From NCBI GenBank assembly GCA_973895155.1, contig OZ316897.1, positions 17,404,058 through 17,468,057 on the forward strand: DNA of 64,000 bases, in the 5' to 3' direction. The DNA comes from Marsupella aquatica. Taxonomy: Eukaryota > Plantae > Marchantiophyta. Position 1 is the first letter of the stretch, and every line of letters begins with the position of its first letter. Below the pieces are notes generated by a model, which searched no databases, was not told the origin of the DNA, and saw only the letters and a list, made by a program, of their open reading frames with translations. The translations under genes were made by a program, and so were the position numbers. Shown here piece by piece: positions 3,828 to 38,400 of the stretch.

Positions 3828-3977
3828 GATTACTTTAGGGACACGTATTATACGTTCATCGTATGTGAACGTATGTTTTATAATGACATGTTCTTTTTAT
3901 ATTGTTAATAATATGTTTCGAGCACTACTATATTTGGCGTTAATTTCATTGTGAATACTTTATTGTATTTTCTATAG

Positions 3978-8274: not shown

Positions 8275-8790
8275 CTACTCGCCATCTTGAAGCTCTACAA
8301 GGCCTAACACAAAAGGGTCCGTGTTCCAGAGCTGACACACTTTCCAGGCCCTCTTTTTTGCAAAAACCTCATTGTACTTAACGTCCGCGTCTGGATCTAC
8401 ATCACATGCTGAACACCGAGCATCCAAAGCATGTACACACCCTGCACCAACAGTGATCTGAACACCATTCATCGTCTGAGTGAACATAATGGACTGTGGA
8501 TCGACATACTTTTCCCACATGGTTTGGCGAGTCATACGGGATGGACGATTAGAACCAAACATAATGCCAATAGGCCAAGTCCCTCTCAACATGCCTAATG
8601 CCTTTAGCTTACGTCGCAACCTCACTGCTTTCTCATAGAGAAGGCCTACAGATTGGCTTCGGGTGGTTACCATGGTGTCTTTTGCACCGTTACCTCCGTA
8701 GAAGGCAAAGACAGAGGGTCTGAAAATCAAGCCTACCAAAGCTGGTCCACATGACAAATCCTCCTGCAACAACATCATCCGGTGTGTCAC
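8275..8790 (-). CDS. Hypothetical protein; probable last exon of a multi-exon minus-strand gene starting near the GC-rich region ~10300-10680
   Basis: 171-aa ORF with an internal TTGCAG acceptor; upstream donor-like sites (e.g. ~8870). No recognisable domain. Confidence 0.3.
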   Translation of the reverse strand: MTHRMMLLQEDLSCGPALVGLIFRPSVFAFYGGNGAKDTMVTTRSQSVGLLYEKAVRLRRKLKALGMLRGTWPIGIMFGSNRPSRMTRQTMWEKYVDPQSIMFTQTMNGVQITVGAGCVHALDARCSACDVDPDADVKYNEVFAKKRAWKVCQLWNTDPFVLGLVELQDGE

Positions 8791-11700
8791 TCACTGTACT
8801 ATAAAAATGGACAAACTGAGCATCACAAATTGCAAATAGAGCGAATGTTTCAGGGATTTGGCTAACTTACTTGGCCTCTAGAAATCGACAAAACTTCCCG
8901 CTCCCACAACTTCGTGTGGAGCTTTGGATTTGTTACATCAAAGCTCCTTGAGATCCACCTCTCCCCAACCTTGATGATTCACCTAAAGTTTGCTGCAGAA
9001 TTTGGGGCAATGGTAGCCATCCCAGATTAAAATTTGTTTATCAAACTCAACTGCACAAACTGCAAATGAATACCTTGCGGCCTTAACCCTTGACGCAATA
9101 CAAGTGACCAAGGAAGTTCATTCCTGATTGGTGCGTACCTCAGTCTCCTTTGTCCACTGATCCTCTGATCGTGACCCGGGTCCTCAAAGCTGAATCTTCC
9201 TCAAAGCTGAATCTTCCAACCTCCACTCTGCTCAACTAAGCCCGATGGATGATCACTGCAACTGCTTACAAATGTCTGCGACCAAACCAGGAAAAGCGTT
9301 ACTTACAGACCAACACCCTAGCCAGTGAAGGAGCTGCAAATGGAGTCCAAAAAGTGGTGGAAGATTAAGTATGAGAGTAGACCTAAGGCAATAGCAGAAG
9401 GCAAGTCAGAGCAGAATAAAATAAGACATAGGAAGCCGGGGAGGAATCAGAAGAGCGATGGCAAGCGCTTCAACCTAAGCGCAGAAATTAAGAGCTTAAG
9501 AAGTCCTAGAGACGGTTGCTAAAGGAACTCAAGAGCAATTGCAACATCCGAGGCAATGCCATTTGGCGATATATAGTGAATGCAATATCGTCAACCAAGA
9601 AATGCAGTTCACTTGAGGGACTGTCACTACATTCAGGACTACATCGTGTGGGTTTTGTTCAGTCTAATGCAGGGAGAGGGTTACCTTGTTGCACCAAACC
9701 GGAAGGTGATCGCTCCTTAGCCTTCTAGGGGGTATCCTTCGATGATATCTGAAAAGGCCCACAGGCATCAGCTAAAAGCATGTAAACTCTACATCCATCC
9801 TTCCATTGAAAAACTCTCTCAACATTGAAAACCAGATGGCTTACCGTGCTCAATTGATGTGTCCACTCCCAGAAGAGTCAACACGCAACACTGAAGCTTT
9901 CACTATCTCCTTCGATCACTGGGTTTCTCAAAAATGATCTGCAAGAAAAACATCTCCACAATGAAGCACTCAAGCTGGCAGCGTTTGCAAATCCAATGAA
10001 ATGTCACTCATGTCGATCGCATCAAGATCTTAAGGATAGTCACAATGACTTAGAACAATCCATTGAAATCCAGCCAAATGCATTGGCAGTCAAAGGCACG
10101 TAAATCCTACAAATCACAATGCAGTGGCGTGCAAATCCGCAAGTTGGCACAATTACAGCCAAATCCAGGAAACATTGAGGCAACACATAGAACATTGAAG
10201 ACATAATCGGGGAGATAACAATGCATGCCTCAAATGTGGAAGGTTCACAGAGCATTTGAGTGGGTGAGATTGAGACGACCTTGACAATCGCAATGTCGGG
10301 GAAGACCTTCCAAACTAAGGACCTTCAAAGCTAGCACTCAGCGATGCTGGGCAAGAGCAAGAACAGGCAAACGAGGGCCAACAATGTCGGATGCGGATCG
10401 ACAATGGTGGACAAGGCCAAAGCAGCAATGGCGGACGAGGAGCAGCAATGGCGGACAAGGAGCAGCGATGGCAGAGGATTGATGATGATGGACGAGCAAC
10501 GATGGCGGTCGAGCAATGATGGCGGCCGAGCAGCGATGGCGGCCGAGCAGCGATGGCGGACGAGCCAGGAGCAAGCAGAAGGCATCAGGGAGCGGGAGTG
10601 CGAGGCGAGAGCGAGCGCGAGGCGAGGTGAGACCGAGCGCAAAGGAAGAATGAGGAGCAGGGGTACGAGGGGGGGCTGACCCCAGGCGGTGACGGTCTCA
10701 TGACTAAACCCTAAACCTTAGGGTTCATAACGTAGGCGAGGCCATGGATCGCCGATTCAATGGCTTCGATTCGCTCTCCCTCTAATCCAACGGTTTTAGT
10801 CATCCCCGATGTGTTTTCTTAAATTCCCCGCCAAAACCCCCACCACTCCACACACCTGGTCCATCCCCATTGCCCCGGGATCGCCCCCAATCCTCCCTTC
10901 AAAACTTTTCTAGCTTAGCATAGCCAGTATTAACATTTTAATTTATGAAGGAGATATGGATACTGTAAGGATAATACACGTGTACCAATTATAATTTGAC
11001 ACGTGTACCAATAATATGATGCCGCGTGTCGCTACCTATTGATTTACCCTTCCGCAAAAGTAAGCAGGATGACATTTCAAGGGGTCTTACGAAATTACAA
11101 AGTGGTTTCGGTATATATGCGGTGGTTGCGGAATTGTGAGCAAATTATAAAAATTACCGCCGAAGGGATAAAAATGACCCTTGAACGATTCTCACGTCCT
11201 CCCCGTATTAGAAAGGAGTGGGGGCCCAGGGGTCAGGGCTAGGGTCGGGGCGGCTATTTTTGCGCCGACCTGCGCTCCAAAAACAACCGCGACCAGGGAG
11301 AAGCGGGGTTCAATGAGAGGTCGAAGGGTATGCGAGTGTGTAAGGGGCAAAAGGGTTAAAAAGGCCAGTTACAAACCTAAATTGCTGCCGATTCGAATGA
11401 GAAAACAATGAGTTACCGATGGGATTTGTTGCCAAATCACATCGACGCCATTTGCAACTCCAACACTGTAAAAGCTTCCACCACGTTGCCTTCACACCAC
11501 GTCAAGTGCCAATCCCAAACTCAAAACAATTACCTTGCCACGATCAAACTGTTGAGCCGTAGCACTACGCAATGTTTCCACTGAGTCGGACGTCACAAAG
11601 AGAAACCCAGTTCAGATGGAAATGAGCTCCATAGCTTGTGAAAAACCTAAACGCCTCCTTCACTCGTCATGTCGCATTTGGTAACAACTCGACAACAATC

Positions 11701-14700
11701 CTGCTACCAAAATGATCAGCTTGCTTCAACCTTCAACTTGAGCTATAATGTGTGATCCCTCCCGCACCGTATAGCTCACACTGTTGAAAAATGCAAACTC
11801 CACTAGTAGAAACCGGGGCAATTTAGACCATACCTTATAGGACTAAGCCCACTAAGTCCTTTTTCCATACTTGAAACGACTCGCACCCATTGCACCAGTT
11901 TTGTTGAAGACTACAAAAGACTATTAGTGTTTTATGGTTCACTAAAAGACTATGAGAAGTAACCTTGCTACTTTGTGAACGGTGAATAGTCTAGCACATC
12001 ATGGGTAATGTTCACTTATGTTGAGGAGGGGTAATTCTGTAAAGAGGGAGATAGCAAGGGGCATAACTCAATAAATGGCCTTATTTGTGACAAAAAAGGT
12101 TTTGGAGTGAGGTTCATGGAGGGTGGACTACGGAGGGATCGATTACTAACTCCATCAATAAAAGGCCAAGATGCACAAAGGTAGATTTGTACCGGTCTCA
12201 AGGGGGTGTGGGTTTAGGGTTAGGGGGTTGTCCAGGCAAAGAACACTCGATTGAAATAGTGACGCAATGGTTTAGGGTAAAGGAACATGTTTAGGGACCC
12301 TAACTTGTTTGCTGCCTTGGGAGGATCTTGAGAGCCTGAGCTTGCAAGCGGCATGCACTCTAAAAATGGCCCTTGGCATTGCAAAGATAGTCTGGCCACA
12401 GTCGAGTTGTGAAGACGTTTAGGGGGTTTATATGTCAAGGCTAGGGGGTGGCTGGGTTTTCACTAAAGGGGGTTTAGGGGGGTTTGATGTCAAGGGTCGG
12501 GGGTTGCATGTTAAGGGGATGGGGGTTTAGGAACCATTGGATCGTTGGCATCATGTCCATTGACATCATGTTCCCCATCATGTCCATTGACATCATATAT
12601 GTCGGGAAAGATAATTGACAAATTATTCATGAGGGTAGGCAATTTGGACAATGTTCAATTGTGTTCAGGAGGGGTAATTGCATAAATTAAGAGGGTGATG
12701 ACAAGGGGCATCACTCATTAAATGGCCTTATTTGTGACCAAAAGAGGTTTGGTTTAATGAAGTTCGATCACCACAGATATTTGCTAAGGCCAAAGTATTT
12801 GTTTAGCGACACTACACTAAGTTGTCACTCACAACACTTGAGTGAATGGAGGGGGTTTATGGAGGGTCAGGATAATCTTGCCGTTACCATGTCGGCAACA
12901 CCAGTGACTTTGGTAAGGGTATCCCAAGCTAGGGGCCTGTATCGCTTGCAGTACCGTTTGGACACCCGAGTCGCGCGACCGTTGGAAGGGAACAAGCCGG
13001 TTATGCAACTTTGCTTACACTTAGCAGGTTGTTGATGTGTTTAGGGATCCCGCCACATTCCCAACTTGCGGAGCAAGGTTTATTGTGTTCTCTTGGTGGG
13101 ATCGGGAGTTTAGGGATTGGAGCAAGGTTTTATCGTGTTCTCTCGATGGGATTGGGAGCTTAGGGATCGGAGCAAGGTTTTCCGTGTAATCTTGGTGGGA
13201 ACGTCTCTACAGTGAGGTTTAGTGTTCCCATTTTCTTGTGGTCGGCTCTGTGGAATCCGAGAAGAGGGATCGGGAGTTTAGGGATGCTGCAATGACCGGC
13301 TCTCGAAGGGTGAGGTGAGACAACCTATTCAACGCCCTTTTGCTGCACCCTTAAGCTGTTGAGCTGCCATTGAGCTGGTGAAGCTGCATGCGGGTTGCAT
13401 CTGTTCTACGGGCGCACTATCTGCCTGGTTTATGGATTGTGGACTTTGTGGGGAGCGACAATCGGTAACAACGTGAAGGCCATCAGAGGCTGGGCAAAGC
13501 AGTTTAGGGTGCTGTGGTCGAGGAGGAGCTCACCACAAATTGGGGAGAAGACGTGGGTGACGAGCTGGGGGCGGGGAGGAGCTGCAGTCAGGGAGGATAC
13601 AGACCGTCTACAGAACGACTGGCAGTCGGAGCGGCGCAGGAGCTTAGAGTGGGCCAACGCCAGCTGAATACAAGCCAGGAGTTGCATAAGGTGAGAGTCC
13701 AAGTTTTGTGTTGCTTTAGTGTTCGAGCAGCGTGCTGCCATTTCAGCCATAGTGCACCGCCTTTGAAGCTCCCATTGTCAGGGCTGGTAAGACATCACGG
13801 CTACATTGCTTTTCTTTGTTGTCCTCTGTCTTTTTGTGGGGACAACCTACTTGATTTGAGCTGCGCAAATCGTCATAAGTTAAGGCATGCGTCATGCCAT
13901 CTGGATAGTGTGCCACCGAACTGTGGGAGGATGAGCAACGCGTGGCTGTAAGCAGGTATTCTGTCAGCACAGGCGAGACTTCATTGTTAAAATCCTATTG
14001 CCTGCAATGTGTCTTGTAATGTGTTTTTCCTCATTCAATCAGGAGCTGAGAAGGGTATTGTTAGGCTTCAATTACTCTGTGTTTTTCTCCAGCTCCATGG
14101 TACAGTTTGTGCTTTGTCTGGCGCCCATGCTCCGTCGATCGTAGAGCTAGGTCAACCGAGCTTTGAAGAGGGAGGCTGTGGGAGCTCCTTACTGTGCTGC
14201 AGCTGCTCTTCAATCAACGGTGTAGAGATTGTAGCTACGATCAGTGTTTGCGGAGCTGCCAGCCGGGTGCTTCGATAGTAGAGAAGAGCAGCCACAGTGA
14301 TTCAGTCCTTCTCCTATGTGCAACCAAGGACCCCCTGTGCATCGTAAAGTGTGACCTCGGAGCTGAGCTGCGCACTGTCTCTATTACATGCCTTGTTGTT
14401 CTCTATTACATGCCTTGTTCTCCCGTCCACTATTTCCTGTGATTTTCTTTCTTCTAGAAGAGAATGGTGATTTCTTCTTCAATCAAACAAAACCCCACCC
14501 AACCACCACCCAAGAACGTGGGGTGCGCGCTTCTCAATCCTCCTCAAACTGGCCCCAAGTCTGCTGAAACCCCATATATTACCCACCGGCACCAAGGGTC
14601 CAGTCCCAACCCGTCTTCCGCTTGCCACCCTCCTCACTCTCTCGCGCATCTATCTCCCGATATTTCACGCACAGCCGAGCCCACCAAAAGCTCTCTCCCT

Positions 14701-16606
14701 ACAATCCCTCCTAAATCAACTTTCTCGTTTCCTGTTGCTGCTGATGTATGTTTGTTCTCCCCTATTTTTGTTTACTGATTGGTCTCTCCACACTTCCTGC
14801 TTGACATTACTGTTTTGCTCCTCCTGGATCCAAACATGCCTTGTGCCCCGTGCTCCAACCTGCATCCTTTTCTTTACTGAGGGGGGGACCACAGCCTCCA
14901 GCCATACCTTGTGGCAGGCCTGGTCAAGACGGTGGTCGGTAGCTCGTTTTTGCTTTTTTCTCTTTTGTTTCCCAAGCTTCTGGGCGAGGGCATTACCATT
15001 CTGGATTCTCCGCGAGGCGCCACTAGCTTTTTTTCTCGGTTGCCCGTGTGCCTGCCTTCTTAGTTTTGTTTTTTCCTCAAGTGACCGGGCCATCGCTGTA
15101 TGCAGATTTTTCTTGTTGTATTCATGTACAATATTTTATTGTTCTATCTAGGTTGTGGCAAGCCAACAAACTGTTGACAACCAACATGGAATAACAACTA
15201 TGCAGTGCAATGGCAGAGGACACTGTCCAATATAGGAATGACATGGTTATGTTTTCAATTCCCTGCTTGGATGAGGCGTGGTGTTGCTTGTAATCATGTA
15301 TTTCTTCACACTAGAAAAGCAGTCTGTCGGATGAGGTTGTCGGGATTGTTTGTGGGTCAGTCATCTTACGGACACCTAGCAACGTCAAATGAATGGTGGA
15401 AACGGGCCATGTTGTCATTTTGAAATTTGTCTTTCCTTTTGCCATGCTACCCAATCATTTTGTTAGTCCATGAGTCATAGATTCATAGATTCTATGTTTT
15501 GTGCTTTGTCTAGAATGCTATGGCGCCCATGCTACAATTTGTGGTTTTTGTCTAAGCACAAATCCTCTCTGTGCCTGGTCTCTGTGTACCGTCATTTGGA
15601 TTGATTGTGCAGACGTTTCCTCTTCTCCCAGTCCTTGTCATCCACCAGCCAAAGCACATTGGATTGTTTTCAAAGGAGGGCTGTGTAGTTCGGAGGGTTT
15701 GATCTATGCAGCGGATTTGAGCAGATTGGCGGTTGTTAGTTTCTTCTTGTAAAACCTGTCTGTCTTTTCTGCTTTTGGCCATGCTCCTTCACTTGTTGCT
15801 GCAAGCTCAATGTGCTTCAGCTATGGCAATATTCACTTACCCTGTCCCAACGGCACTGCCATGAGCTGTAGGACAGCCAACAGAAGCAGATTGTATCAAT
15901 TGCATGTAAGTCAGGGTATTTTATGTATTGCGGAACAACTGTCCAAGTATGCTGCAATGGTCCATCTTGCAGAGCTGAATGAGCCAATTTCATTTTCCCT
16001 GTGCACTTCTATTTCTCAGAGAATTCCCTGGTCATGCTCATTTCCCCCAGAGTTAGAAAACAAAGAAGAAGAGCTGACTAATTGTAATTCCAATCCATAT
16101 CCTGATCGGTCAAGGATTGTTCACTACATTGGCCTTGTCATTGGCCGAGGTCACCAAATTTTGCTTGGTTTCATTCCTGTGGAGCACTGCTGTGATGGAT
16201 TTGTCGTAGCATTCTGCAAACTCTCACGGTTTGCTTATGGCCATTATTTGCAATTTGCTGCTACTAATATGTCTTCTTCTAAGCAGCATACACCAGAAGT
16301 AAGCAATAGTGGAGGTTTAACTGCACATCAACACATCTAGTGAACTACCTCTCTGCTGCTCACTGGAGGGTGAGACTTTCACTCTTTCTGGATATTGTAG
16401 TTTGTAAGCAAGTTGATTAGGAGTGTTTCATGCTATGTTTACACTGTGACCCCTAGCTGGAACCAATGGAATGACACAGTGAGTGGGAACTGATAATTTA
16501 AGGTTGGTTGCTGTTGGTGAGGCAAGTACAGCTCCTGCTCACCTTGCTGATCGAAGGTGCTTATCAGAGGACGTGAACACACGACATCTCCACAAAAGCA
16601 ACACTT

Positions 16607-17056
16607 ATGGTGAGGACCCGCAACGCTGAACATGTGCGGCTTGCACGCAAGGCAGAGATGTTGCGCCTTGAGTATGTCAGACTTGGGATCCTTCCAGCCC
16701 AGTCTGCATGGTACTTTGAGTACCCAGTTGTTGCCAGGAACAACTACAGTCGGCCTGTACCTGCTTCTCCACCCTTCCCAACATCCTTGGTATTTCTGTC
16801 TCTTGTACATGACCCGCCACAAATTAGGGCCCAAGGGTGTGTGCACAGTTGCCAATATGACTGTCCTGCCTGTAGGGCTTCTGGCCTAGAGTTGGATGAC
16901 CGTTCTCTTGGATGTCGGTTTTTTCACAGAGCACAATGTATCATCTGGAACCACTCGCCATCCTGCAGTGTGCCTGGCAATGTCACTTGTCCTGCCCTCC
17001 CAGACCCCACCACCGGTCACTTTGGTGTCTACACATGTTTGGATCACACGCTCTAG
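16607..17056 (+). CDS. Cys/His-rich hypothetical protein, possible degenerate zinc finger
   Basis: 149-aa ORF MVRTRN...CVHSCQYDCPACRASG...GCRFFHRAQC...VYTCLDH; co-oriented with the cargo cassette. Confidence 0.4.
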   Translation: MVRTRNAEHVRLARKAEMLRLEYVRLGILPAQSAWYFEYPVVARNNYSRPVPASPPFPTSLVFLSLVHDPPQIRAQGCVHSCQYDCPACRASGLELDDRSLGCRFFHRAQCIIWNHSPSCSVPGNVTCPALPDPTTGHFGVYTCLDHTL

Positions 17057-17725
17057 AGGACCACTTGTCACACCACATGCACAAACCAGAGACCATTGAC
17101 CTATAACTTAACACTTTGACTTGAACAGAGAGGATATTTACTTAAGATTTTGAATTATGACCAATTTTGGGTCCAGGGTTTAGGGTCAACAGTACATAAC
17201 TTATCCTATTATGGCTGCACTAAGTACAATATCCTAATTTAAGAGGCTAGCAAGCTCACTTAAAAGTCTCCTTTCAAAGACTGGAATTAATGGGCCATGT
17301 GATAACCTGGAAAAAGTGATTTATGCCTAACTTATTTGTCTCATTCACTATCATAGCCTATTTAGGATGTATAAATTACAACCCTGATCACACTGCTTGA
17401 TACCAATCCTGTTCAAAAAATGCCTGTTTTACATGTCACGACTGTTATATGTGATTCAAATGCATTAAATCTTGTTGCAGATCTCCTTTGGTGAATCATA
17501 GCCACAAAATTGAGGTGTAGGTGGAGCTATTGTACGAGGGGATCAGTTTTTAGTGTGGGCTCAACAAACCAAAAAGTATGTCTACTCTGCACATGTGTGT
17601 GAACATTTCATTGCAGTAGCAATTGCCACTCTAGTCTATATGCTACACTGTACTTTTTGTACACTGCACTAAATTGTATTGTCTGTGCACTCTGCTAAAT
17701 TGTACTATCTGTCTCATGCGTAGGC

Positions 17726-18406
17726 ATGGCACGCCCTAAAATCCGAGCCAAGAAGCGGGGGACAGAGGTGAGCAACACAGGTGTAGTTGGGCCAGATGGT
17801 AGTAACTTCTCCGCAAGTCAGATTTTCCAGAAGGCAGCTCATTGTTGTGCCATTTGTGACGATGGTGGTGACTTAGCCATATGTGAGGGCCCTTGCATGA
17901 GGCATTTCCACCTCAACCCGGAGTCTGACCTTGCTGCAGAAAACAACTGTCCAGGGGTGGGCCTCCCGTCAGCACACCAAGGAGGCTGGATGTGCACTGA
18001 TTGTTTGGAGAAGCAGGCTAAGTGTGCACAGTGTGGGAAGTTGGGGTCTTATGAGGGCTCTGTTGATGCTCCACCACTTGTTAGGAAATGCCCTGACAGA
18101 TATTGTGTGAGGTTCTTTTGTTTTTCATGTTTGCCCGATCTTGCCACAGCTTGCCCACTTCATAAGTGCAAGGCATGTGGTCAGCACGATGAAGATTTCT
18201 GGGTGGACATAGTCCACTGTGTTAGGTGTCCCACCATGTGGCACTTTCATTGTTTGAAGGAGCGTCAAGCAGAAGGCTATGCTTGTGACAGACACATCTA
18301 TGATCACTCTGCACATGGTGTTGATCGATGGATCTTCTATTGTCATCGCCATGCCATAGATCCTACTTTGCACACTCCCATGAGAGATCACATTTCTTGG
18401 CTTTGA
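17726..18406 (+). CDS. Stand-alone EDM2/NSD-type composite PHD-finger protein (TE cargo)
   Basis: CAICDDGGDLAICEGPCMRHFH...C..C...CAQCGKLGS...CPLHKCKAC...HCVRCPTMWHFHCL...IFYCHRHAIDPTLHTPMRDHISW follows the recalled EDM2 PHD region (CAICDNGG..CCEG.C.RSFH...CPLHKC..C...CRRCP..YH..CL...IYC..HEID..L.TP.RDH). Basic N-terminus RPKIRAKKR. Acceptor AG at 17722-17723. Confidence 0.85.
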   Translation: MARPKIRAKKRGTEVSNTGVVGPDGSNFSASQIFQKAAHCCAICDDGGDLAICEGPCMRHFHLNPESDLAAENNCPGVGLPSAHQGGWMCTDCLEKQAKCAQCGKLGSYEGSVDAPPLVRKCPDRYCVRFFCFSCLPDLATACPLHKCKACGQHDEDFWVDIVHCVRCPTMWHFHCLKERQAEGYACDRHIYDHSAHGVDRWIFYCHRHAIDPTLHTPMRDHISWL

Positions 18407-19006
18407 ACCTGAATAATGTACATGCATAGTGCACCTGATGTGGATACCTTGGAGATTGCAGACATTCCAATTTTGAGAAGAAGGACCTCTGTAGGAGAGG
18501 ATGCTTAGGCAACAAGTACCCTAAGTTCATTACTTGTTCCTGGGTACATGCCTTCAAAATCTCCCCTTAAGCCTTCTAGGAACTTTTTTAACTCTGCAAT
18601 CATTTTGATCACGACTTACATGACACTGCTTAAATTAAATCAGGACTTCTCATTATGAGCATATAAGTTACAAGGCTATTTAATTTGCGAGAATTCCCTT
18701 AAAGTGTACCAACATTTTGTATTCTCATTGAATGTCTGCCCCCATACGAAACATCTGTATGTGGCATCACAAAACAATTGCACTTGTCACCTTCAATATT
18801 GTGAAGGCACATATTCAAACTATGAAGTGCATGCTTGCAGGTGTCTAGTACGTTTGTCCCAATATTTCTCCCGTTTGGAATCGGAGCAGAGACTCACCAG
18901 ACGACTGGACTGGACCAAGTTATAAACGCAGCATTTTAAGGGCCCTCCGATTATCAGGTGAACGCATTATCTTCCGGTCTGCAGTGATTAGGTGGCCCGT
19001 GTGTAC

Positions 19007-19855
19007 ATGGCCTCTAGGAAACGTACAAATGTTGACCACCCGCCTTTGTTGGCTGGAATCAAAGCCATTTTGATTCCTGGCCACTATGGGTTCACCCAAG
19101 TGAGTTGGCCAATCGTACAAAAACGATTCTCAGAGTTCCATGGGACTGAAGTCAAGGACATCACTCCACAGACTACACATGTTGTTGCGGGGACATGGCT
19201 GGATGTGATGAACAAGTGGTCATGGTCCTTCATTGATTCTGCGATTACCAACCAAGGTCTAAAAGTAGTTGAAGTCTCTTGGCTGACCGATTCTGTTAAA
19301 CATAGGTGTGTACAGAGTACTGAGCAATATGAGTTGTGGGAGAGTGAGGAGGCCACTGCAGAGGCTTTGGCTGAAAAGGAAGCCTATGAAGCAGCGGCAG
19401 AGAAACCCAACTTTGCTTCTGTCCAATATGGACCTGTTGTCAACATAGGACACCATCCTATGCGTGCAGATGCTATATTGAATGAGCATGGCAAGGAGAG
19501 AAATACCATTATGAAGGGGTTCAGTGTGGTATTTGCAGAAGAAGGAATTGGGGAGACTAAGTGCAGACTGTACAAGTCTATAGTTGTTGAGCTAGGTGGG
19601 ACAGTGGAGGAGAGTCTAACAGAAACCTCCACTCATGTTGTAGGTCTGTCATACATGAAAATATGCAGAAAATTCTTTAAGACAACAGTGCGTGATTTTG
19701 TCATGAACAACAATCTTTGGGTGCTTTCCCCTGATTGGCTTCTGGAATCAGCAGCTAGAGGGAAGCGACAGAATGCTTGGGACTTTGATATTTTTGAGGC
19801 CTGGCCCTCCAAGATTCAGCGGAGATGTATGCTTAGCAAAGGTGGGAGAGAGTGA
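19007..19855 (+). CDS. Tandem BRCT-domain protein (TE cargo)
   Basis: Two BRCT repeats: ...HGTEVKDITPQTTHVVA...VVEVSWLTDSVK...EQYEL and ...LGGTVEESLTETSTHVVG...VLSPDWLLESAARGKRQN. First ATG 19007 (ORF track from 18992). Confidence 0.85.
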   Translation: MASRKRTNVDHPPLLAGIKAILIPGHYGFTQVSWPIVQKRFSEFHGTEVKDITPQTTHVVAGTWLDVMNKWSWSFIDSAITNQGLKVVEVSWLTDSVKHRCVQSTEQYELWESEEATAEALAEKEAYEAAAEKPNFASVQYGPVVNIGHHPMRADAILNEHGKERNTIMKGFSVVFAEEGIGETKCRLYKSIVVELGGTVEESLTETSTHVVGLSYMKICRKFFKTTVRDFVMNNNLWVLSPDWLLESAARGKRQNAWDFDIFEAWPSKIQRRCMLSKGGRE

Positions 19856-20031
19856 GGAGTAGGAGTCCCTCATATTTTTGTATAAATCACAATTTTGTAA
19901 TAAATGTGATCCTTGAACTAACTCATCTTGTCATGGTTGGTCGCAGTTGAAGTGATTGTTGTTTCCTGCTGCGTGGGGTGTGACTGTGAATCTACTTGCT
20001 GGGCTCTGTTTGGCTGAAGACTTTGGTGGGT

Positions 20032-20565
20032 ATGCTGCCTCTTCCAGACCGTCAGGCCCTGTGTAGGGTCCTCCTACGGGTTGCATCGTGCATGGCTACT
20101 GCTTGGGCTTACTTGTGTGGATTGGTAACCAGACAGAGTGTAGCTCCATCCGAGATAATGCCTGCAGACCTTGGATGTGTTGTGAATGCTGTGGTGAATG
20201 AGGATGCACAGTCGGAAGAGGACATTTACTTTTCAGCAGATGAGTTAGACAAGCACGATGCTGTAGGTGGTTCCTTGTTGCCTGATTTGGCAGATGATAT
20301 AGTTCTTACACATGTCTGGCCGAGGGTTCTTGTGGTGTCTGGCGCACAAGATATCTGCAAATATAGACTAATTAGTACCCAGTGGAGGGACTTGGTAGCA
20401 ACATGTGCACCATGGAGGGCACTGCTGCCACTGCTTGTAGGCACGGATCGAAGACCACCATGGCATGAGCAGGGTTTAGACCTTGATGACTTAATGTACA
20501 TGCCTGAGTACCTCAGGGCTGAGTGGCATCGACAACAAGATTGGTATCCGTATTTGATGTGGTAG
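20032..20565 (+). CDS. F-box motif protein (TE cargo)
   Basis: SLLPDLADDIVLTHVWPRV...ICKYRLISTQWRDLV fits the F-box consensus LP.LPDD+...+..R+...+R.VC+.WR.L+. First ATG 20032. Confidence 0.7.
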   Translation: MLPLPDRQALCRVLLRVASCMATAWAYLCGLVTRQSVAPSEIMPADLGCVVNAVVNEDAQSEEDIYFSADELDKHDAVGGSLLPDLADDIVLTHVWPRVLVVSGAQDICKYRLISTQWRDLVATCAPWRALLPLLVGTDRRPPWHEQGLDLDDLMYMPEYLRAEWHRQQDWYPYLMW

Positions 20566-20891
20566 TAAGATGAGGACATCTCACACCGGTCTCGCACCTG
20601 GCACCTGTGTCTATGACTATACATGATTGGACTCTGATATGGTCATGGATGTACGTGCAGAGGCAGTACATGTGAGGACAGCGGAGGAGTTGACATCCTC
20701 AAACATTTAGGAATTTTGTCTCATTCACTTGAGAATAGGTACATGACTCAGGCACCTATATTTTTTGTTTTTTTGTTTTTTTGGAACGTTACGTATTTTG
20801 GCAAGTACAGTCGGGGGTGAAATCCTTAACAGGAAGTGTATTTTTCACTTGCATAATAAAATGACAGGGTGCTGAGTGCGTGTGTATAGTG

Positions 20892-23800
20892 ATGGCTCCA
20901 AGGTTGCCTCTTCACAACCCATTTAGGATTAGGCATCATGATTCTAAATTGTGGATGCGTGAACAAGCCCGGGCCGCCCAAGGTAGGAGTAGGAGGATGA
21001 GATGCCCATGCACACAGTGCCAAGGATTCAAGTCATTGAGTTTGAACACTGTGCACCTTCACCTGCTGCGGCATGAAAGGCACCCTCGGTGGAGGGTTTG
21101 GAATGTACCAGCAGAAGAAGACTCCTCTGATGAAGAGTGGAGAGCTGACTTTGTGGATTCTAATACAGCTAGGCGTAGAGACTACGTAGAGCAGGACATA
21201 GACTGTGCAGAGGATGGTCCTGGGGTCCAACATGAGAACGTGGATGACCAAGATGGAGATGCAGAGGCAGTCACTGAGGACGGTGGGATGGATGTCCCAA
21301 GAATGGTTCAAGAGATTTTTGAAGACCTTGATGCTTTTTACGACACAGTGGAATCAGAAGAGGACAATGAACCGCAGCCACACATTGGCGACGGCCAAGC
21401 TGAACCTGACTTTGACATTGGGGAAGGTGCAGCAGAGAGGGAGTGGGTGTTTGGGGGCCCAAAACACATCAAAGAAGCTTGCATTCCTATCTACGAGGGG
21501 TCGAACTGCTCCAAGCTGGGTTTTGTCGTGTTGTTGTTGAACATCTGTGGCAATCACAATGTTCCCAATATATTTGTGACAGAGTTGTTGACCTTCCTGC
21601 GCCGAAATGTGTTACCAGATGGTAATTCAATTCCAAAAAATATGTACGAGGCTAGGAAATTGATGTCTAACCTTGGGCTGAACTATGTGTCTATTGACGC
21701 ATGCCCTGATGGGTGTGTTCTCTTTCGCAAAGAGCATGCAGATAAATTGACATGCCCTCATTGTGGTAAGCACAGGTACAAGAATGTAGGGAAATGTACA
21801 CACCCTGCCAAGGTTCTTCGTCATTTTCCTCTCATTCCTAGACTACAACGTCTGTTTAGATGCCCTGCCATTTCCAAGCTGATGACATGGACTCCTGATA
21901 ACAAGAGCAGTGATGGCCTGCAGCGTCACATTGGAGATTCCAACCATTGGAAATTTGTTGATGAGAGGTGGCCACAGTTTGCTGCAGAGAAGCGGAACTT
22001 TCGATTTGGTCTATCACTGGATGGAGTAAACCCATTTGGAGACAAAAACAACCGTTATTCATGTTGGCCGGTTACGCTGCTAAATTACAACCTTCCCCCA
22101 TGGATGACTACAAAGAGGTTTTTTGTCATGATGGTGCTGTTAATCCCTGGACCAGCTTCTGTGACCGAGCAATTCATAGATATCATGTTGGCTCCAGCAG
22201 TGGAAGAGTGGAAGACTTTGTGGATAGAAGGGGTGTTAACCCATGATGTTCTGAAGGGGCTTCTTCGACCCAGCCCCTTTAGACTGCATGCAATTTGTTT
22301 GCTGGATATAGCAGATTACCCAGGCTATGGCATCATATCTGGACGAGTGACAAAGGGCTATGTGGGGTGCACACCATGTGGGAAAAATGTGACAAGTGAG
22401 TGGTCGCATGCCCTGCACAGTATGAAATTTCAGGGGCATAGAAGGTATCTGCCTGTTGATCATCCTTACAGGCACACACGGTCTCAAATTGCACACTTCA
22501 ACAACAAAACAGAGCTTCGTGGCCCACCACAGAGGGTCACCAGAGAGCAAGTCCTGAGGTGGGCAGCCAGGAAGGCTGATTGGGACAAGAGAAGTGCCAC
22601 TGATCGAGAACCTGAGGATCCAGTGGTGAAACACGGTGTGAAAAGACAGACCTTGATGGACTTGGAGTTGGAGTACTGGAGGGTAATGTACTTAGCCTCC
22701 AGCCCCTGTATGATTGCAATTTTAGATTGGAGCAATGGTGGATTGATGTTGGTTACAATCCTCCTATGTGGTTAATTAGTGTTTCTGTTGTTGAATTCTT
22801 TGCTTTGTGGAGTGCAGGAATTCGAGCCCAGCAAACACAATGTGGACGTCATGCACATTGAGAAAAATATTTGTGAGAGCTTGCTGAAGTTCTTGTCGGG
22901 TGAGAAAGATACAGGAGCAGTTCGAGCTGATATGCAACAGAAGGGGATTCGCCCTCACCTTTGGTTGAAGCCCCATGCAAGCAATCCCAATGTACTTCTC
23001 AAGTTCCAAGCTCCCTATGTGTGCACACAGGATGAATGGAAGACATTCTTGTATAGATTGAGCTGTCTGAAAGTGCCCTCTGGCTATGCTGGTGCCTTCA
23101 AGAAGCATATTACAAAGAATAAACTTGGCAGTATGAAAACACATGACTACCATGTGTTGATGCAGCACATTCTGCCCCTATGCCTCAGAGGTCTCATGCA
23201 GAAACCAGTCCATAATGTCATTCTTCGACTGTGCAATGTATTTCGCCGTATATGTGTGAAAGTGTGGGATCCCCAAGGATTGGAGCAGTTGAAGCAGGAT
23301 GCTGCTTATGTCCTCTGTGACTTGGAGATATACTTCCCCCCTGCTTTCTTTGATGTTATGACTCATCTCCTAATCCATGTGGTAGAAGAGCTAGGGCAGT
23401 ATGGGCCAGTCAGTACCAGATGGATGTACCCTATGGAGCGATACATGAAGTTGTTGAAAGGTCATGTGAGAACATACTACAGGCCAGAGGCTTCCATGGC
23501 ATTGGGGTACATTAAGGATGAGACGTTGGGATTCCTAACAGAGTACATGGCTGGGTCTGGTGAAGCTATGACAAGAGTTTGGAAATCTGGTGAAGATGAT
23601 GGAGTGAGTGGCGAGGTTGTTGAAGGTGTGGGACGTGCTGTTCAGCTGCCTGTTGCGATTCGAGACAAGGCTCATTCATATGTGCTGGCAAACACAGAGC
23701 CTATGCAACCATGGTGGAGGTGAGTGATTGAATTGACTTGCCTTTGTTGTGATGCTTCTTGTCTGTTCCAAGGGTGATCTTAGGTTGTCATGTGTTGTTT

Positions 23801-24592
23801 AGACCTAACTATGCCTGTACCTCATATTGCAGGGAATATGATATGCAAAAAGCTGCACACTCTGGGCAGCAGGATCCCTTCCCACAGTTCGAGCAGTGGA
23901 TTCGGGTGACAATTCGAGAGCATAGTAGACATCACCCAGATATGGAGAAGGATTTGTATCTTCTATCTGTGCCACCACGATTGTCTATTCTGACCTACAA
24001 ACGGATGAGAGCTTATGGAAATCATTATCGAGTGAGGGATGAGCAGGGTGACCATTGTGTATCATATGATTGTGGTTTGATTTCTGTGTTTGAGCAGAGA
24101 ACCTCTGAAGAACAGAGGGGGTGGATGAAGATGGGTTACGTGGGGGAGTTGACCGACATTTGGGTGTTGAATTATGGTAACACAAGTGTCCCAGTGATAT
24201 TGATGAAGGGATCATGGGTGAAATCAGAGTGGCAGAGACCAAGGGCCACCATGAAGCGTGATCATGATGGGTTCTTGTTGGCCAATTTTAGGTCCAGAGT
24301 ACCAGAATGGTCTGAGCCTTTTGTTTTCCCTAGCCAAGTTGAACAGGCTTTCTTTGTAGATGTGGAGGAGTCACATGGCTGGAGGGTGGTATGCCATAGC
24401 CAAGCACGGAACAGGCGGATGGATGGAAGTAAAGTAGAGTTCAGTTTGGATGACCATGCTGCATTCGAGCATCCTAGTCATGAGACTGTACTTCCAACTC
24501 GGGCAGGGACTGACTACATCCCCTTAACATTGAGAGAGACATATGATGAACCTGGGCAAATGGAATATGATGAGGTTGATGATTTGCAATAG
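20892..24592 (+). CDS. CACTA TnpD transposase, apparently intact; exons 20892-22682, 22818-23719, 23833-24592 (~1150 aa)
   Basis: CPCxxC N-domain, IDACPDGC, LSLDGVNPF, NYNLPPW, ADYPGYG, DVMHIEKN, KTHDYH, FFDVMTHLLIH, WMYPMERY, EPFVFPSQVEQAFFV. Both GT-AG introns join in frame. Confidence 0.95.
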
Positions 24593-24769
24593 GCAACAGC
24601 TGGCGATTGGCAAGTATGAGGTTGAGGATGACTACCTGCACAGAGTCACAGAACGGGAATTGCTGCCTGGAATGATGTTTAGGATAGTTGGATATGCATG
24701 AAATTGATTGATACTTTGAATTTAGTGTGCTGATTCTCCCTGTTTGGTTGTGGGTGCTGTGCAGAAGCT

Positions 24770-27700
24770 ATGGGGGAAGAGGGTGATGACATGGAGACAG
24801 ACATGGGGCTTGGAGAGTGGGGTGAAGAGGAAAGATTGGATATGGATGGAGACCCAGATGCAGGGGGCTCACAGAAAAATGCACCTGTGCAGGATGCACA
24901 GGGCCCTCATCAAGTCCCAGGTAGGTGGGCAGCTAGAGAGAAATCACATAATCCATACCCTAGAAGGAGCCAGAGTTATTGGCAAGGGACGCCTGATAAT
25001 TATGATGATGACTATGATGGAGCAGAAGATGGATGGGATGAATATGAACACCCAGAGCGTGGTAGAGACGGGTACAGAGGGCAATGGACAGGTGAGGAGG
25101 ATGATTGGACAAGTAAGTGCCTTGTGCTAGTGATTTTGTGATGGTAGTAGAGATTTAGCTCAATATGGACTTATCTGATGTGTAGCTAGGGCAAAGAGTT
25201 TATCTTACAGGTCCATGAGTGTGGCATGTACCTGTTGGTATGCAGACTCTGATTGGGACAATCACGAAAACAACAAAGGCCATCCACGTTCAGATAGGCG
25301 GCAATCATTCACAGGCGGGAGAAACGGCCCTAATTCATCAAGACAAAGCAATAGGACAGGTGGTCCAGAACCATCTATGCGCCAAGGGAGAGGTAACTTG
25401 GTCATTGCAGAATTGCTCTGAAGTCCAGTGTATATTTGGCAGCAGGATTTATGATTCATACTTACCTAATGTAAGTGACTGTAAATGGATCCTGTAAATG
25501 TGCAGGGACTCCAGGGAGGTTTGGACAATGCAATCCAGGCCGTGGGGGGAGATCAGGCCGTGGAGGGACCCCAGGCCGTGGGGGGACACCAGGCCGTGGA
25601 GGGACACCTAGTAGCGCTTCAGGGAGTACCAAGGCAGGAGACAGTAACAAATTTGGTAAAGTAGAAGTGAATTCCGAAGGTTGGATAACTCCCACATGTG
25701 ATGGTAAGAACCGTTGGCATTCTGACCTAAGAGGAGAAGTATTGCGTTGGTTAGATTTGAGCATTACAGAGTTTAGGAGTCAGAACAAAGCTGATTGGGC
25801 TGCTATCTGCAAGGACATTCTTGAACGGTGGGACTATGTTGGTAATGATGGTAAGGGCCCAGTTGAAGATTGCATATCAGATTATGCAATGAGGATTTTG
25901 AAACAAGAGAGGCATAGGTTGAAAAGGATGTGGATAGACAATGGTTCTAACAGGAGAATGCCACCACCCCCATCATTGGAACTGGATCAATGGACACGGT
26001 TAATCAAAGGGTTCATGTCGGAGGCTGGACAGAGCAAGAGTGAACTGATGTCAAATGCTCGAGGCAAAGTGAAACACCTTTCACAGGCTGGGAGAGGAAG
26101 TTATGCTCCAGTGAAAGAACAATTGGTAAGGCAGTGACATGCCTAATAGTAAGCCTCAAACTTATCATCTTGCTACCATTATTACATTTTCATTGACAAT
26201 CAACACTTGGTTTCATTCATATGTATGTTGATGTGGACTGCAGAAGAAATTGACAGGTGAAGAACCATCAGCACAAGAAGTGAGAGAGGAGTTCATGAAA
26301 CAAAGGAGTGAGGTGACAAGTGTGACTTCCAAACAGGTGATTATGTTGTAATTCTATATGTTCTGTGACTATTTGGCCTTGAGCATCAGAAAGAATTGTA
26401 GTAGGAAGTAAGCAACCAGTTCTTGGGGACAATTATCTGAGATATGTAAACTGTGTTATGACAGGGAACTGTTACAACTCTCACAAAGATGTCTGAACGG
26501 TTGAAGTCATTAGAGTGTGGACTCCCTCGAGTGGAAAGTAAATTGGCTGATCGTTTGGATATTGTGGAGGCATCTGTAGCGAACCTTCTTGCATCAGTGG
26601 AATCTAATTTCAAGCTTGTGATTGAAAAATTGGGTGGTTCCCAACCAAACAATGAGGGCAACATTGTACAAAGTGTGCCCTTGTTAACAAAAAAGGGAAT
26701 TGGCAAATCTGACACAGGTATGCAATGAGGATTTTGAAACAAGAGAGGCCCATTGTTCATTGTGTCCTATGTTCAAATGTTAGAAGTAAGTTTTCATGAA
26801 TTGAGTGAATGGTTTGAATGCAGGAAGAGTGGAGGCAGAGAACCTGGACCCTGTAATCGGTAAGCAGAATGGCAAAAAGGTTGCTGAGACAGGTAACCTG
26901 CTATGATCCAGTACATTACATTTGAAAAGTGCATGGAGTTTTGTGAAGCTTAAGCCGGTTGGAGGTAATCTTTTCTGTAAGAATTGGTTGGATAAACTGG
27001 GAATTGAAGTGACATCATGATTGATGTATCAGGTGATTCAAAGAGCAATGAAAAAGATGTGCCCAGTGCCTCAGTGACCATAGCCAAGGAGGTATCAGGT
27101 AAGCTGATGCTTTAAATTCCTCTCCTACCATTGTTGAGAAACAATTCAGTGGTTAATAGATTGAACCTGAATCTTGTGGTCTGTTTATTGATCAGCAGAA
27201 GCAGACATGGAGGATATGGCAATGGCAAAGAAGGGGAAGAAGGCTGTTCATAATGGTAAGGAGATAGTGACAACTTTGTGGATGGTGACATGTACATGGC
27301 GCACATGTGATGAGTGATTCACTTATGTTGGACAATGCATTGAATTGTAGTTGATGCAGAGTTGACAGACTCTCAACCAAGTGGGAGCAGGGTGAAGCGA
27401 CGTCGAAACTTGGGAGCAACATTGGATGCAAGTAAGATTGTAGATGCTTCAATTGAAGCAAGTACAATGTTAGCAGATACTGAGATGATGTCGCAGGGAA
27501 ATCCTGCTACACAATCGGAAGTGTCAAATATGGATGCAGATTCTTTGAAGAAGAGTGTAGCCAATTCTCGATCACCAGCACAAAACACTCGTGCCAAAGT
27601 CATGACTCGCAACCAAGGTATGAATAATGTCATGTATAAGCCACCCAGGAAAGCCAAGAAAAACAGCCAGGGTAAGGTGGAGGTGATAGCCACAGCAGAG

Positions 27701-27955
27701 CCAGTCCATAATCTTCTATCATGGGAGAATGACTCGCAGGTATGTGTGGGTACAGGCATTTTGCGACCGGATCATGCTAAATTCCATGGCAAAGTGGTCC
27801 CGGATGACCATGTAGTAGTGTTGTTGACTACAGTGATTGTATCTGATTGTAATTTGCCATTTCCGAATAGAGACGATGATCCACCTCAAGAAATAATTGC
27901 AGATGCAGTAGGATCTCTTGTGCTCTGGCCATCAGAGTGTGTTAGTCTGCAGTGA
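24770..27955 (+). CDS. TnpA-like multi-exon CACTA accessory gene
   Basis: Series of short exons with GT/AG borders (24770-25112, 25246-25392, ~25506-26125 and others). Core ILERWDY...ILKQERHRLKRMW..PPPP...QWTRLI. C-terminal En/Spm-type domain (VGTG...FHGKVVPDDHVVV...LPFP...DAVGSLVLWP). Exact exon chain not fully resolved. Confidence 0.7.
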
Positions 27956-29081
27956 CTGAATACAAGTGTAGATAGAATCATGTGAATTGTGTTACATTTT
28001 GACATTGCCTTGGAAAAATCCAAGAAATATCTGTACCAATTTTTCCATTTGGTAAAGAGGATGAAGGAGCCGTTGTGTGTGACATTGATATTTCTGAATT
28101 CTGTATGTATGAAACAAGTGATTGATGTCAAACTATGGCTCTATGGTGATTGTCTATGATACTTGAATCTGTTTTGTATCAATTCAGTATTAGTGTGTAT
28201 GGTATAGACGAATGCTTTGTGACCTTCTTTGTAGTCTATGATGTTTGAATCTGTGAATTCATATTAGTGTACATGGTATAGAAGATGGTTTCTGAAAATT
28301 TGTGTGAGGTTCTAATGTTAACATGGTGAATGGTGACCTTATAGAGTGAGTTCATTCCAAGTACACAATAAAACATGAATGAAATGTGTTATTTGTGCAC
28401 AAGAGTGAGTTCATTCCAAGTAGTATAGTGGGGTCTTCATCACTCATTTCCAGTTGACATGAAAGACTTGTACATACCCCACAAAGTGTCTACTTTAGTC
28501 GTTTTATAAACCCCCACAAAGTGTCTACTTTAGTCATTTTATAAACCCACAAAGTATATTTAAAGACTACCCTCCATAACCTTTTGAGTTGTTCCCAACG
28601 ACTCACCATCGCAGCCCATAAAAGACTGAAAAAGACTCACCAAAGCTACCCACACAAAGACTAAAATAGACTGAAAATCCAGTCTATTAAACGACTTATA
28701 AACCAGTTCTATAAAGGACTCAGTTGATTATAGTAACAAAACATACGACTCGCAGTCCTATAAAGGACTAGAGTCCTTCCCAGTCGTTTCCAAGTCCTAT
28801 ACGGTATTGAATAGTCGTTTAATGGGGTCTAAATACCCCCCGGTTTCTACTAGTGCTCTAGTTTCTCCCCCAAAAAGCCGTCAAACACGAATAAAACTTG
28901 AACGACGCAAAATTCAATTCCTCCGCACCACGGATATCGATCAGCAAGTTCTAACCACCGTCAAAAAGCGCTCTCACTAACCTATCCGCTCAGCCACACA
29001 CATTCAAGTTTTATGCAACAAAACTCTGAATGTACCATTGAGTACAATGAATGCTGGAAAACCTCGTCACCTCCCAGACAT

Positions 29082-29093
29082 GCTCTGATACCA
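29082..29093 (-). promoter_or_regulatory. Primer binding site (tRNA-iMet) of LTR copy A
   Basis: Minus strand TGGTATCAGAGC, 2 nt from the LTR end. Confidence 0.9.
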
Positions 29094-29095
29094 AT

Positions 29096-29432
29096 TGTTG
29101 AGCAGAGACAACATTTGCAACTGCAAGCCCATGAACCATCCAATGCACAAGAGTCGACACAAAGAGATACATGGTTCACCTCCACATGAGACTACGTCCA
29201 CAGGAACACACAAGAGCTTTACTGCACTCTAGGCGGACCAGCCATACCAAGCATCCACAACACAAGCTCTCCCTATCTCTCAACTAGCTCCGTAACAATG
29301 AGCCTAAGTTCCATTAGGGGTCTGGCATCAGCCTCAGCAATATGCACAATAGCACTCTCGCTAACATTAGCTAAGTCCTAACTCGAGTTAGACTAACTTT
29401 GGTTAGCTCATGAGCCACAAGACTAGAGAACA
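29096..29432 (-). mobile_element. LTR (copy A), with 8-bp deletion near its outer end
   Basis: TGTTGAGC...AACA termini; homologous to 38401-38744 and 55228-55571. Confidence 0.85.
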
Positions 29433-37600: not shown

Positions 37601-38386
37601 AGAATTGCTTTTAGTGTGGAGAGTTCCAAGCAACTAGAATAACATGAATTTAGAACCCTATTAATGATCAAAGCATAAGATTAGGGTAGAGATTGTATCC
37701 AAGCTTATATCTTAATTATTAGACTAGATGAATGTTTTATTTATTATCCAACACATTTTATATTTCTATCACCCAAATGTTTTTCTATAGAATCCAAATT
37801 AATATTTATTTTTCCCCAAGGTACAATCTTGATTCCCCAAATGTACATTAAATGGTGCCCAAATGTACAACTTTCACTACCCAAATGTACAATTCTTGTG
37901 CCCAAAAATATATATTTTAGTGCCCAAATGTCCAAAGATCAAAGAATTATCTAGTTTTAATGAATAGAGTGATCTCCATAGCTTGTGAAAAAACCTGAAT
38001 GCCTCCTTCACTTGTCACGTCGCACTCGGTCACAACTCGGCAGCATTCCAACTACCGAAATGACCAGATCGCTTCAACCTTCAACTTGAGCTATAATGTG
38101 CGATCCCTCCCGCACCGCATAGCTCACACTGTTGAAAAATGCAAATTCTAGTCTCTCCCCCAAAAAGCCATCGAACACAAATAAAACCTGAATGACGCAA
38201 ACTTTGATTCCTTCGCACCACGGATACCGATCAGCGAGTTCTAATCACCGATAGAAAGCCCTCTCACTAACCTATCCGCTCAGCCACACACATTCGAGTT
38301 TCATGCGACAAAACTCCGAATGTATCACCGACACTAAACACTGGAAAAAAACCCATCACAAAAAAACCTTGTCATCTCCCAGGCAT

Positions 38387-38398
38387 GCTCTGATACCA
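38387..38398 (-). promoter_or_regulatory. Primer binding site (tRNA-iMet) of LTR copy B
   Basis: Minus strand TGGTATCAGAGC adjacent to the LTR. Confidence 0.9.
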
Positions 38399-38400
38399 TT

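Follow-up and report, generated by a model that had tools for sequence, protein, structure and literature searches.

The window analyzed here, a stretch of 64,000 nucleotides (nt) from Marsupella aquatica (Marchantiophyta; contig OZ316897.1, positions 17,404,058 to 17,468,057 of the forward strand), harbors a CACTA transposon (EnSpm, TNP2-type) which carries, in addition to its transposase, a gene for a stand-alone protein with two BRCT domains. All positions given below are those of the window. The whole element extends from 11801 to 28855 on the plus strand (17,055 bp), as delimited by its inverted ends and an empty site. Its 18-nt terminal inverted repeats are perfect: the left one (11801..11818, plus strand) begins with CACTAG and is 100% complementary to the right one (28838..28855, minus strand). 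A 3-bp target-site duplication, CTC, can be read directly on the left (11798..11800) and on the right side (28856..28858). By self-BLAST, we identified a paralogous empty insertion site at 38140..38150, at which the two flanks adjoin directly and TTC is present only once; the underlying pairs connect 11623-11800 with 37970-38148 and 28857-29428 with 38147-38732. Short words are enriched near the element ends, AAACCCCC for example with 6 occurrences in the two terminal stretches of 1200 nt and none inside, and all recognizable open reading frames (ORFs) of the 17-kb element lie on the plus strand. An initial annotation, made from the sequence alone, had described the BRCT protein as the cargo of a mobile element, and its position between perfect 18-nt ends, flanked by the CTC duplication and matched by an empty paralogous site, bears this out. 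The landing site of the element is itself a dispersed repeat with at least three occurrences in the window at 83-89% identity (stretches 11499-11800, 28857-29428, 29970-30103, 37970-38732 and 55226-55573).

The tandem-BRCT gene occupies 19007..19855 on the plus strand and encodes 282 amino acids (aa) plus the stop codon. The surrounding frame (18992-19855, plus strand) is open from stop to stop, and the ATG at 19007 is the likely start of the gene, because the three closest relatives from the protein libraries (P0002, P0003 and P0005) begin at the aligned position, ORF residue 6. The N-terminus of these three proteins is basic and resembles that of the window protein. In the following, domain residues are numbered along the stop-to-stop frame, in which this methionine is residue 6. 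As defined by the Pfam stretch and an AlphaFold2 model, BRCT repeat 1 comprises residues 17-118 approximately (19040..19345, plus strand), and repeat 2 follows at residues 171-272 (19502..19807, plus strand; best Pfam stretch 171-253). The Pfam model BRCT (PF00533) matches the ORF in two stretches with 52.4 bits (cut-off 21.3, E 6.5e-14) and BRCT_2 (PF16589) matches it with 37.3 bits (cut-off 27.3); 16 of the 19 aligned family members show a BRCT Pfam match.

The AlphaFold2 model, which was built from 19 aligned sequences, has a mean predicted local distance difference test score (pLDDT) of 80.4, mostly exceeding 90 in both domains. It contains two confident alpha/beta domains (about 20-115 and 172-265) and a disordered C-terminal tail, with repeat 1 composed of a strand at 24-28, a helix at 39-48, a strand at 63-66, a helix at 69-88, a strand at 91-94 and a helix at 95-103. 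The repeats are joined by an acidic Ala/Glu helix (residues 119-137, 19346..19402, plus strand), which is helical in the model and whose pattern recurs in relatives, followed by a disordered and poorly conserved linker (residues 138-170, 19403..19501, plus strand; pLDDT below 50 at 140-168). Both repeats are related to each other, since BRCT1 of the window protein matches BRCT2 of the relative P0023 with an E value of 4e-7. A catalytic domain is absent because the two BRCT domains and the linker fill the whole 282 aa. The protein is thus what the initial annotation took it for with respect to its architecture: a tandem of two related BRCT repeats, connected by an acidic Ala/Glu helix and lacking a catalytic domain. 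A candidate phase-1 intron (GT 19842 to AG 20167) that would connect the BRCT gene with the F-box-like ORF downstream was rejected, because P0025 and P0026, two relatives of that ORF, keep it from its own methionine, upstream of the acceptor.

A HMMER search of 1.84 billion representative proteins returned only 17 proteins at E <= 1e-3. They measure 62-313 aa, several being of half length, with the sole exception of a 931-aa multi-BRCT protein (E 5.8e-4), and none of them has the length of Pol lambda. P0002 (294 aa) is 62% identical to the window protein according to HMMER and 61% according to BLASTP. Identity to P0002 is unevenly distributed: the domains share 68/102 and 69/102 residues, the region 119-170 shares 21/51 (41%). 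The same stand-alone, two-repeat layout is found in P0004, P0006, P0009 and P0014 (264-313 aa) and in the cluster member P0023 (321 aa), at 17-29% identity to the window protein in the alignment. The names of these relatives are uninformative, one reading "BRCT domain" and several "hypothetical protein". No close cellular parent of the BRCT gene is present among the 1.84 billion representatives. A word-index search, which is weak evidence in this respect, did not find longer fused forms, and P0002 was its only match of similar length.

At the C-termini of P0002, P0004, P0007 and P0023, a conserved aromatic-Glu-x-Trp-Pro motif is followed by an acidic, Ser/Thr-rich tail with what we take to be casein-kinase-2-type sites; the window copy carries a short basic tail in its place. 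A metagenome scan with P0023 gave one contig of 1404 nt (L001), containing a 98% copy of P0023, which we regard as decayed because of an in-frame stop codon at 389-391, between the BRCT repeats. Together with the occurrence of clusters whose members differ in length, this stop codon fits a multi-copy gene.

A survey of the element's abundance identified five public runs (three coded organisms, three studies) in which 47-81% of the words sampled from 17600-20900 occur. Four of these (X1, X2, X3 and X5, representing the coded organisms A, B and C, as contigs) were compared over 11000-30000. All 30 depth bins are covered in all four runs at very high summed word depth, which indicates a highly repeated family, even though this measure does not equal copy number. 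In X1, the bins of the BRCT gene (18608-19875) reach 2942 and 2215, and those of the transposase (20510-24313) 1918-2695. The corresponding values are 84,587 and 79,149 versus 137,751-243,003 in X2, 19,239 and 27,251 versus 41,610-69,902 in X3, and 288 and 84 versus 55-270 in X5, except for one transposase bin of 7,604. BRCT depth is hence comparable to transposase depth in X1 and X5 and amounts to about 40% of it in X2 and X3; accordingly, a large share of the material in the runs includes the gene. The left arm of the element (12268-15437) shows a far lower summed depth than the rest of the 17 kb in the four runs and seems to be rarer among copies: bins 12902-14169 reach 289-462 in X1, compared to about 2000-4000 from 16072 on, and 3,644-8,259 in X2, compared to 80,000-285,000.

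Sequence variants were collected for 18950-19900 at 85% likeness. Of 60 rows, the best-supported 40 were considered; 37 of them are located behind the start codon and affect 34 codons. The contigs do not represent independent events, and neutral decay is the fate of most transposon copies. All three listed indel rows preserve the frame (+C and +AA occur in the same contigs, net +3; +AGT lies just before the stop), and no listed variant creates a stop codon. Within the two domains, the listed codons comprise 10 synonymous and 13 non-synonymous changes (ratio of non-synonymous to synonymous polymorphism per site, pN/pS, 0.37; binomial p 0.018), and within the linker and the tails 1 synonymous and 10 non-synonymous changes. 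The domain cores show constraint among the listed substitutions. The coverage of the ORF in all four runs and the frame-preserving indels agree with the conservation among copies that the initial annotation presupposed. The BRCT gene is complete and conserved, and it travels with a highly repeated CACTA family.

The initial annotation had also assigned the second repeat to the Pol lambda type. For this class assignment, we compared the protein with solved BRCT domains by sequence, by family profile and by structure, with Pol lambda represented by the human BRCT domain and not by plant Pol lambda directly. The whole protein matched only the BRCT domains of BRCA1 in the PDB (E 0.1-0.7); with repeat 2 alone, the matches up to an E value of 10 comprised BRCA1 and Rtt107 but not a single Pol lambda chain. 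The scores of the family profile form a narrow band across 79 matched sequences. Rad4 gave the best match (33.7 bits, E 2.1e-7), followed by REV1 (E 6.1e-7), Rtt107 (E 7e-7), BRCA1 (E 3.4e-6), PARP4 (E 4.2e-6) and TopBP1 (E 5.4e-6). The human Pol lambda BRCT domain (2jw5) ranks 25th of 79 and as the seventh protein family, with 27.9 bits and an E value of 1.3e-5, and a further Pol lambda entry (9g9l) reaches E 1.2e-4. Lig4 (E about 1e-3 to 3e-3), TdT (E 3.7e-3) and BARD1 (E about 9e-3) score lower.

The top tandems in Foldseek were Lig4 (6.7e-11), Rad4 (1.4e-10) and BRCA1 (2.8e-10), with the top rows ranging from 6.7e-11 to 1e-9; these rows are effectively tied, because all of them have template modelling (TM) scores of 0.25-0.30 with a large root-mean-square deviation (rmsd). 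In VIA-align, 48 chains reached Z >= 8, nearly all of the listed ones being BRCT domains. Repeat 2 superimposed best on PARP4 (Z 16.0, 96 residues at an rmsd of 1.9) and on XRCC1 BRCT2 (14.3), followed by ECT2 (13.1), XRCC1 BRCT1 (12.9) and REV1 (12.1). Lig4, whose linker between the BRCT domains clamps the coiled coil of XRCC4, has a Z score of 12.9, with 191 residues aligned at an rmsd of 19.9. The Pol X family ranges below, with Pol lambda at Z 11.3 (rank 20) and 10.6 (rank 30), TdT at 11.0 and Pol mu at 9.1. Neither is the layout of Pol X proteins found, in which a single BRCT domain lies N-terminal to the catalytic core: the window protein consists of two BRCT domains and the linker only. 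A specific Pol lambda-type affinity of repeat 2 was hence not confirmed, Pol lambda being mid-ranked both by profile (25th) and by structure (20th). The protein is a generic, rather isolated BRCT tandem, and its likeness to Pol lambda is real only as a shared fold.

The transposase of the element is encoded on the plus strand at 20892..24592, in the open pieces 20865-22775, 22776-23723 and 23753-24592. It matches the Pfam families Transposase_21 (4.5e-60, 202.9 bits, cut-off 28.6), DUF4218 (2e-27, 95.7 bits, cut-off 27), DUF4216 (4.4e-6) and Transpos_assoc. The first two pieces share one frame and are split by an in-frame stop at 22773-22775, which reflects a short intron or else a nonsense mutation; the window's second CACTA-type element reads through in the corresponding region. 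The breaks between the three pieces may be introns or damage. A further piece at 25475..26137 on the plus strand is a candidate for the second, TnpA-like gene: its weak match to Transposase_24 (Ptta/En/Spm; E 0.014, 16 bits, cut-off 28.7) serves as a lead only. In the left part of the element, the ORFs 14471-15151, 15753-16340 and 16577-17056 match no Pfam family. Atlas neighbors are mostly Streptophyta for the transposase (score 0.97) and weakly Basidiomycota for the BRCT protein (0.90, 163 shared features). Both the neighbors of the transposase and its type point to a streptophyte.

Two accessory ORFs flank the BRCT gene. Upstream, the ORF 17726..18406 (plus strand) encodes three NSD-like PHD-type fingers, with Pfam matches to PHDvar_NSD (1.2e-5), PHD-1st_NSD (3.5e-5) and PHD_NSD (5.4e-3), each slightly below the cut-off; in the PDB, it matches AIRE PHD1 (E 0.0047) and NSD2 (E 0.026). 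Downstream, the conserved ORF 20032..20565 (plus strand, 177 aa) encodes an F-box-like protein. Three relatives share 51-55% identity with it, two of them beginning at its methionine. The Pfam models F-box (best E 0.0011) and F-box-like (best E 0.017) each match three members out of four; that of the window reaches 13 bits, versus an F-box cut-off of 20.5. The profile of this group weakly matches the F-boxes of FBXW11 and FBXL5 (E 0.6-0.7). Its structural model is poor (pLDDT 40.6), and a complex prediction with the BRCT protein gave a score of 0.00, which is evidence neither way. At the N-terminus (20032-20140), the model contains a long hydrophobic helix (residues 7-36, pLDDT about 57-67) that is kept in two relatives and may serve as a membrane anchor or form a coiled segment. 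The PHD, BRCT and F-box-like ORFs are arranged head to tail on the strand of the transposase, with spacers of 600, 176 and 326 nt. An acidic motif that the ORF behind the BRCT gene seemed to have in common with the ORF following the relative in L001 was considered and found unsupported (BLASTP E 13).

Based on these observations, we propose tentatively, with a probability of about 0.38, that the BRCT protein acts as a non-catalytic adaptor tying the element's machinery or its breaks to host DNA-damage-response and repair proteins. Such an adaptor would serve the element rather than ride along. It would act by BRCT-mediated protein binding, probably without a classic phosphoserine pocket, and its predicted partners would be break signaling or repair proteins. 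Cut-and-paste transposases leave double-strand breaks that need host repair. We favor break response and repair as the field of action because BRCT tandems overwhelmingly act there, because all nearest solved relatives act there and because the element makes double-strand breaks. It is possible that the BRCT protein modulates repair at the element's own breaks, as the initial annotation suggested. To our knowledge, eukaryotic elements touch repair only through their transposases.

Several observations weigh against such an adaptor. Over the whole ORF, the listed codons comprise 11 synonymous and 23 non-synonymous changes, corresponding to a pN/pS of about 0.59 (binomial p 0.10). The predicted TM score of the model is 0.49, and superpositions of the whole tandem have an rmsd of 13-28 A, so that the packing of the repeats is not confidently predicted. 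In a weak HMMER alignment (E 0.1-0.3), Tyr32 and Ser79 occupy the positions of the BRCA1 Ser and Lys, with the Gly kept. Phosphopeptide-binding tandems of the BRCA1/MDC1 class pack head to tail via the linker helix and bind phosphate in repeat 1, through a Ser-Gly behind strand 1 and a Lys in helix 2, the ligands in BRCA1 being Ser1655 and Lys1702; a classic phosphopeptide reading is doubtful because these positions are Tyr32 and Ser79 here, and the classic phosphoserine pocket is probably absent from repeat 1. The distant relatives are candidate transposon genes only. Finally, the PHD and F-box-like neighbors, together with a SET-domain ORF in the other CACTA element, suggest chromatin as field of action equally.

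The last point leads to a second explanation, which we regard as possible, if on balance doubtful: the PHD-finger, tandem-BRCT and F-box-like proteins could act together as a chromatin or anti-silencing module. Such a module might read chromatin and hand a silencing factor to an SCF ubiquitin ligase, or it might steer insertion to certain chromatin. The head-to-tail order of the three ORFs on the transposase strand speaks for it, and so does the conservation of the F-box-like ORF at 51-55% in three relatives, with F-box models matched by three of four members. The SET-domain ORF lies immediately upstream of the transposase in the window's second CACTA element. Precedents are an accessory gene of giant EnSpm/Plavaka elements that combines a methylase with SET, and the anti-silencing protein of VANDAL elements, both as described in the part of the preprint available to us (bioRxiv 10.1101/2025.02.11.637652); the latter is a non-transposase product that acts on host control and provides an analogy of role only, a relation in sequence or domains not being expected. 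However, the window's PHD matches and its F-box match (13 bits) all stay below the curated cut-offs, the model of the F-box-like protein is poor, BRCT domains are not typical chromatin readers, and mutual binding of the three proteins is conjecture. A literature search returned no match joining BRAT1, BRP1, BRCT and silencing.

A more ambitious proposal would combine both fields, and we consider it unlikely. Here, the plant-type CACTA family would carry a three-gene cassette for host manipulation (a stand-alone scaffold of two BRCT domains between a PHD reader and an F-box-like protein), comprising the first DNA-damage-response scaffold encoded by a eukaryotic transposon, which would recruit the host's break-repair or ubiquitin machinery, or divert it, wherever the element itself excises or inserts. 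The small orphan family of tandem-BRCT proteins of about 260-320 aa, known from public assemblies, would then consist of such transposon genes.

Quite improbable in our view is that the BRCT gene is a passenger, that is, a host gene or gene fragment captured by transduplication and copied along without serving the element. In favor of capture, plant CACTA elements often pick up pieces of host genes. The whole-ORF pN/pS, which is not significantly below 1 among the listed variants, and the L001 relative, whose repeats are separated by an in-frame stop codon, point in the same direction. Against a passenger, the ORF is a complete one whose start is conserved, and the 1.84 billion representatives include no close cellular parent. 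The protein is also kept at 62% identity, and at 17-29% in relatives of the same stand-alone layout. Furthermore, conservation is stronger in the domains than in the linker, with a domain pN/pS of 0.37, and the listed indels preserve the frame.

The weakest explanation, a Pol lambda-type repeat 2 that engages Ku, XRCC4 and LIG4 and thereby competes with end joining or recruits it to the breaks of the element, can draw on the Pol lambda entries among the profile (2jw5, 9g9l) and structural matches, on the Lig4 tandem in the top Foldseek row and on Arabidopsis Pol lambda, which binds LIG4 and XRCC4 via its BRCT domain according to the part of the report available to us (PMC4444747), and it is nevertheless highly implausible, given that six other protein families match better by profile and 19 entries better by structure, that repeat 2 alone has no Pol lambda match at E values up to 10, that none of the 17 library matches has Pol lambda length and that the Foldseek top rows are effectively tied at TM 0.25-0.30.

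Compared to known systems, the protein resembles cellular tandem-BRCT adaptors (Rad4/TopBP1, BRCA1, MDC1, MCPH1, DNA ligase IV, XRCC1) in its two BRCT folds and the helix between the repeats. In these adaptors, however, the BRCT domains sit in large multi-domain proteins, whereas the window protein is stand-alone with a long, disordered linker, and identity to them is only 12-21%. The BRCT domains of Pol X enzymes (Pol lambda, Pol mu, TdT) are single and fused to a polymerase, unlike the tandem described here, which lacks one. With respect to the element, maize En/Spm is the type CACTA element, with a TnpD transposase plus TnpA. The window element shares with it the CACTA inverted ends, the 3-bp duplication, the short repeats near the ends and a TNP2-type transposase accompanied by a further gene, here the candidate TnpA-like piece. 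We know of no BRCT, PHD or F-box-like genes in En/Spm.

In size (17-19 kb) and high copy number, the window element is also similar to the giant EnSpm/Plavaka elements PAG1-3 of Bostrychia and other red algae, which likewise carry several non-transposase genes beside a DDE transposase, as far as the available part of the text describes them (bioRxiv 10.1101/2025.02.11.637652). The cargo of PAG1-3 differs, as it comprises a protein of no known type, a DNA-methylase+SET protein and a ParB-like/2OG-oxygenase protein in the portion of the preprint at hand, whose main text contains 0 occurrences of BRCT or PHD (bioRxiv 10.1101/2025.02.11.637652). In addition, the transposase of the window element is a plant-type TNP2 protein with Transpos_assoc, DUF4218 and DUF4216, unlike those of Plavaka elements. 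The main text of PMC12730594 makes no mention of BRCT, PHD or F-box. No published link between BRCT and CACTA or EnSpm was found in our literature search, in which the sole co-mention of a BRCT domain, a DNA transposon and capture came from an unrelated Fusarium preprint. CACTA elements with extra genes are thus already known, and BRCT as the extra gene would be the new part.

If the adaptor explanation is true, the conserved, dedicated BRCT scaffold of such a successful and highly repeated CACTA family would provide a handle on how transposons deal with break repair or with host control, and on what lets certain CACTA families expand so strongly. The small orphan family of tandem-BRCT proteins that stand alone would thereby obtain a function as well. 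Should the gene turn out to be a passenger, it would still illustrate, in a clean and dated case, how a complete gene is kept across element families that have diverged.

The rest of the window contains further mobile and repetitive DNA. A second, diverged TNP2/CACTA-type transposase lies on the plus strand within 3096-7246, in the pieces 3978-5252, 5297-6310 and 6749-7246. Depending on the aligned segment, it is 24-36% identical to the transposase at 20865-24592; no DNA-level match between the two appears among the self-BLAST rows listed (E <= 1e-10, length at least 80). The SET-domain ORF (3096-3827, plus strand; Pfam SET, 24.9 bits, cut-off 22.4) is located directly upstream of it. The ends of this second element were not found in 1-11800. 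Self-BLAST offsets reveal three tandem-repeat arrays at 30857-34470, 35281-37188 and 43872-45786, with periods of roughly 70, 108 and 77 bp. An ORF of 482 aa on the minus strand (44186-45634) matches FeThRed_B with 32.1 bits but with 0 passing stretches, a match which is probably spurious because the ORF lies inside the third array. A likely host gene is found at 58547-60785 on the minus strand, encoding an alpha/beta-hydrolase (Abhydrolase_3); the domain is distributed over two ORF pieces (59841-60785 and 58547-59098), which suggests one intron.

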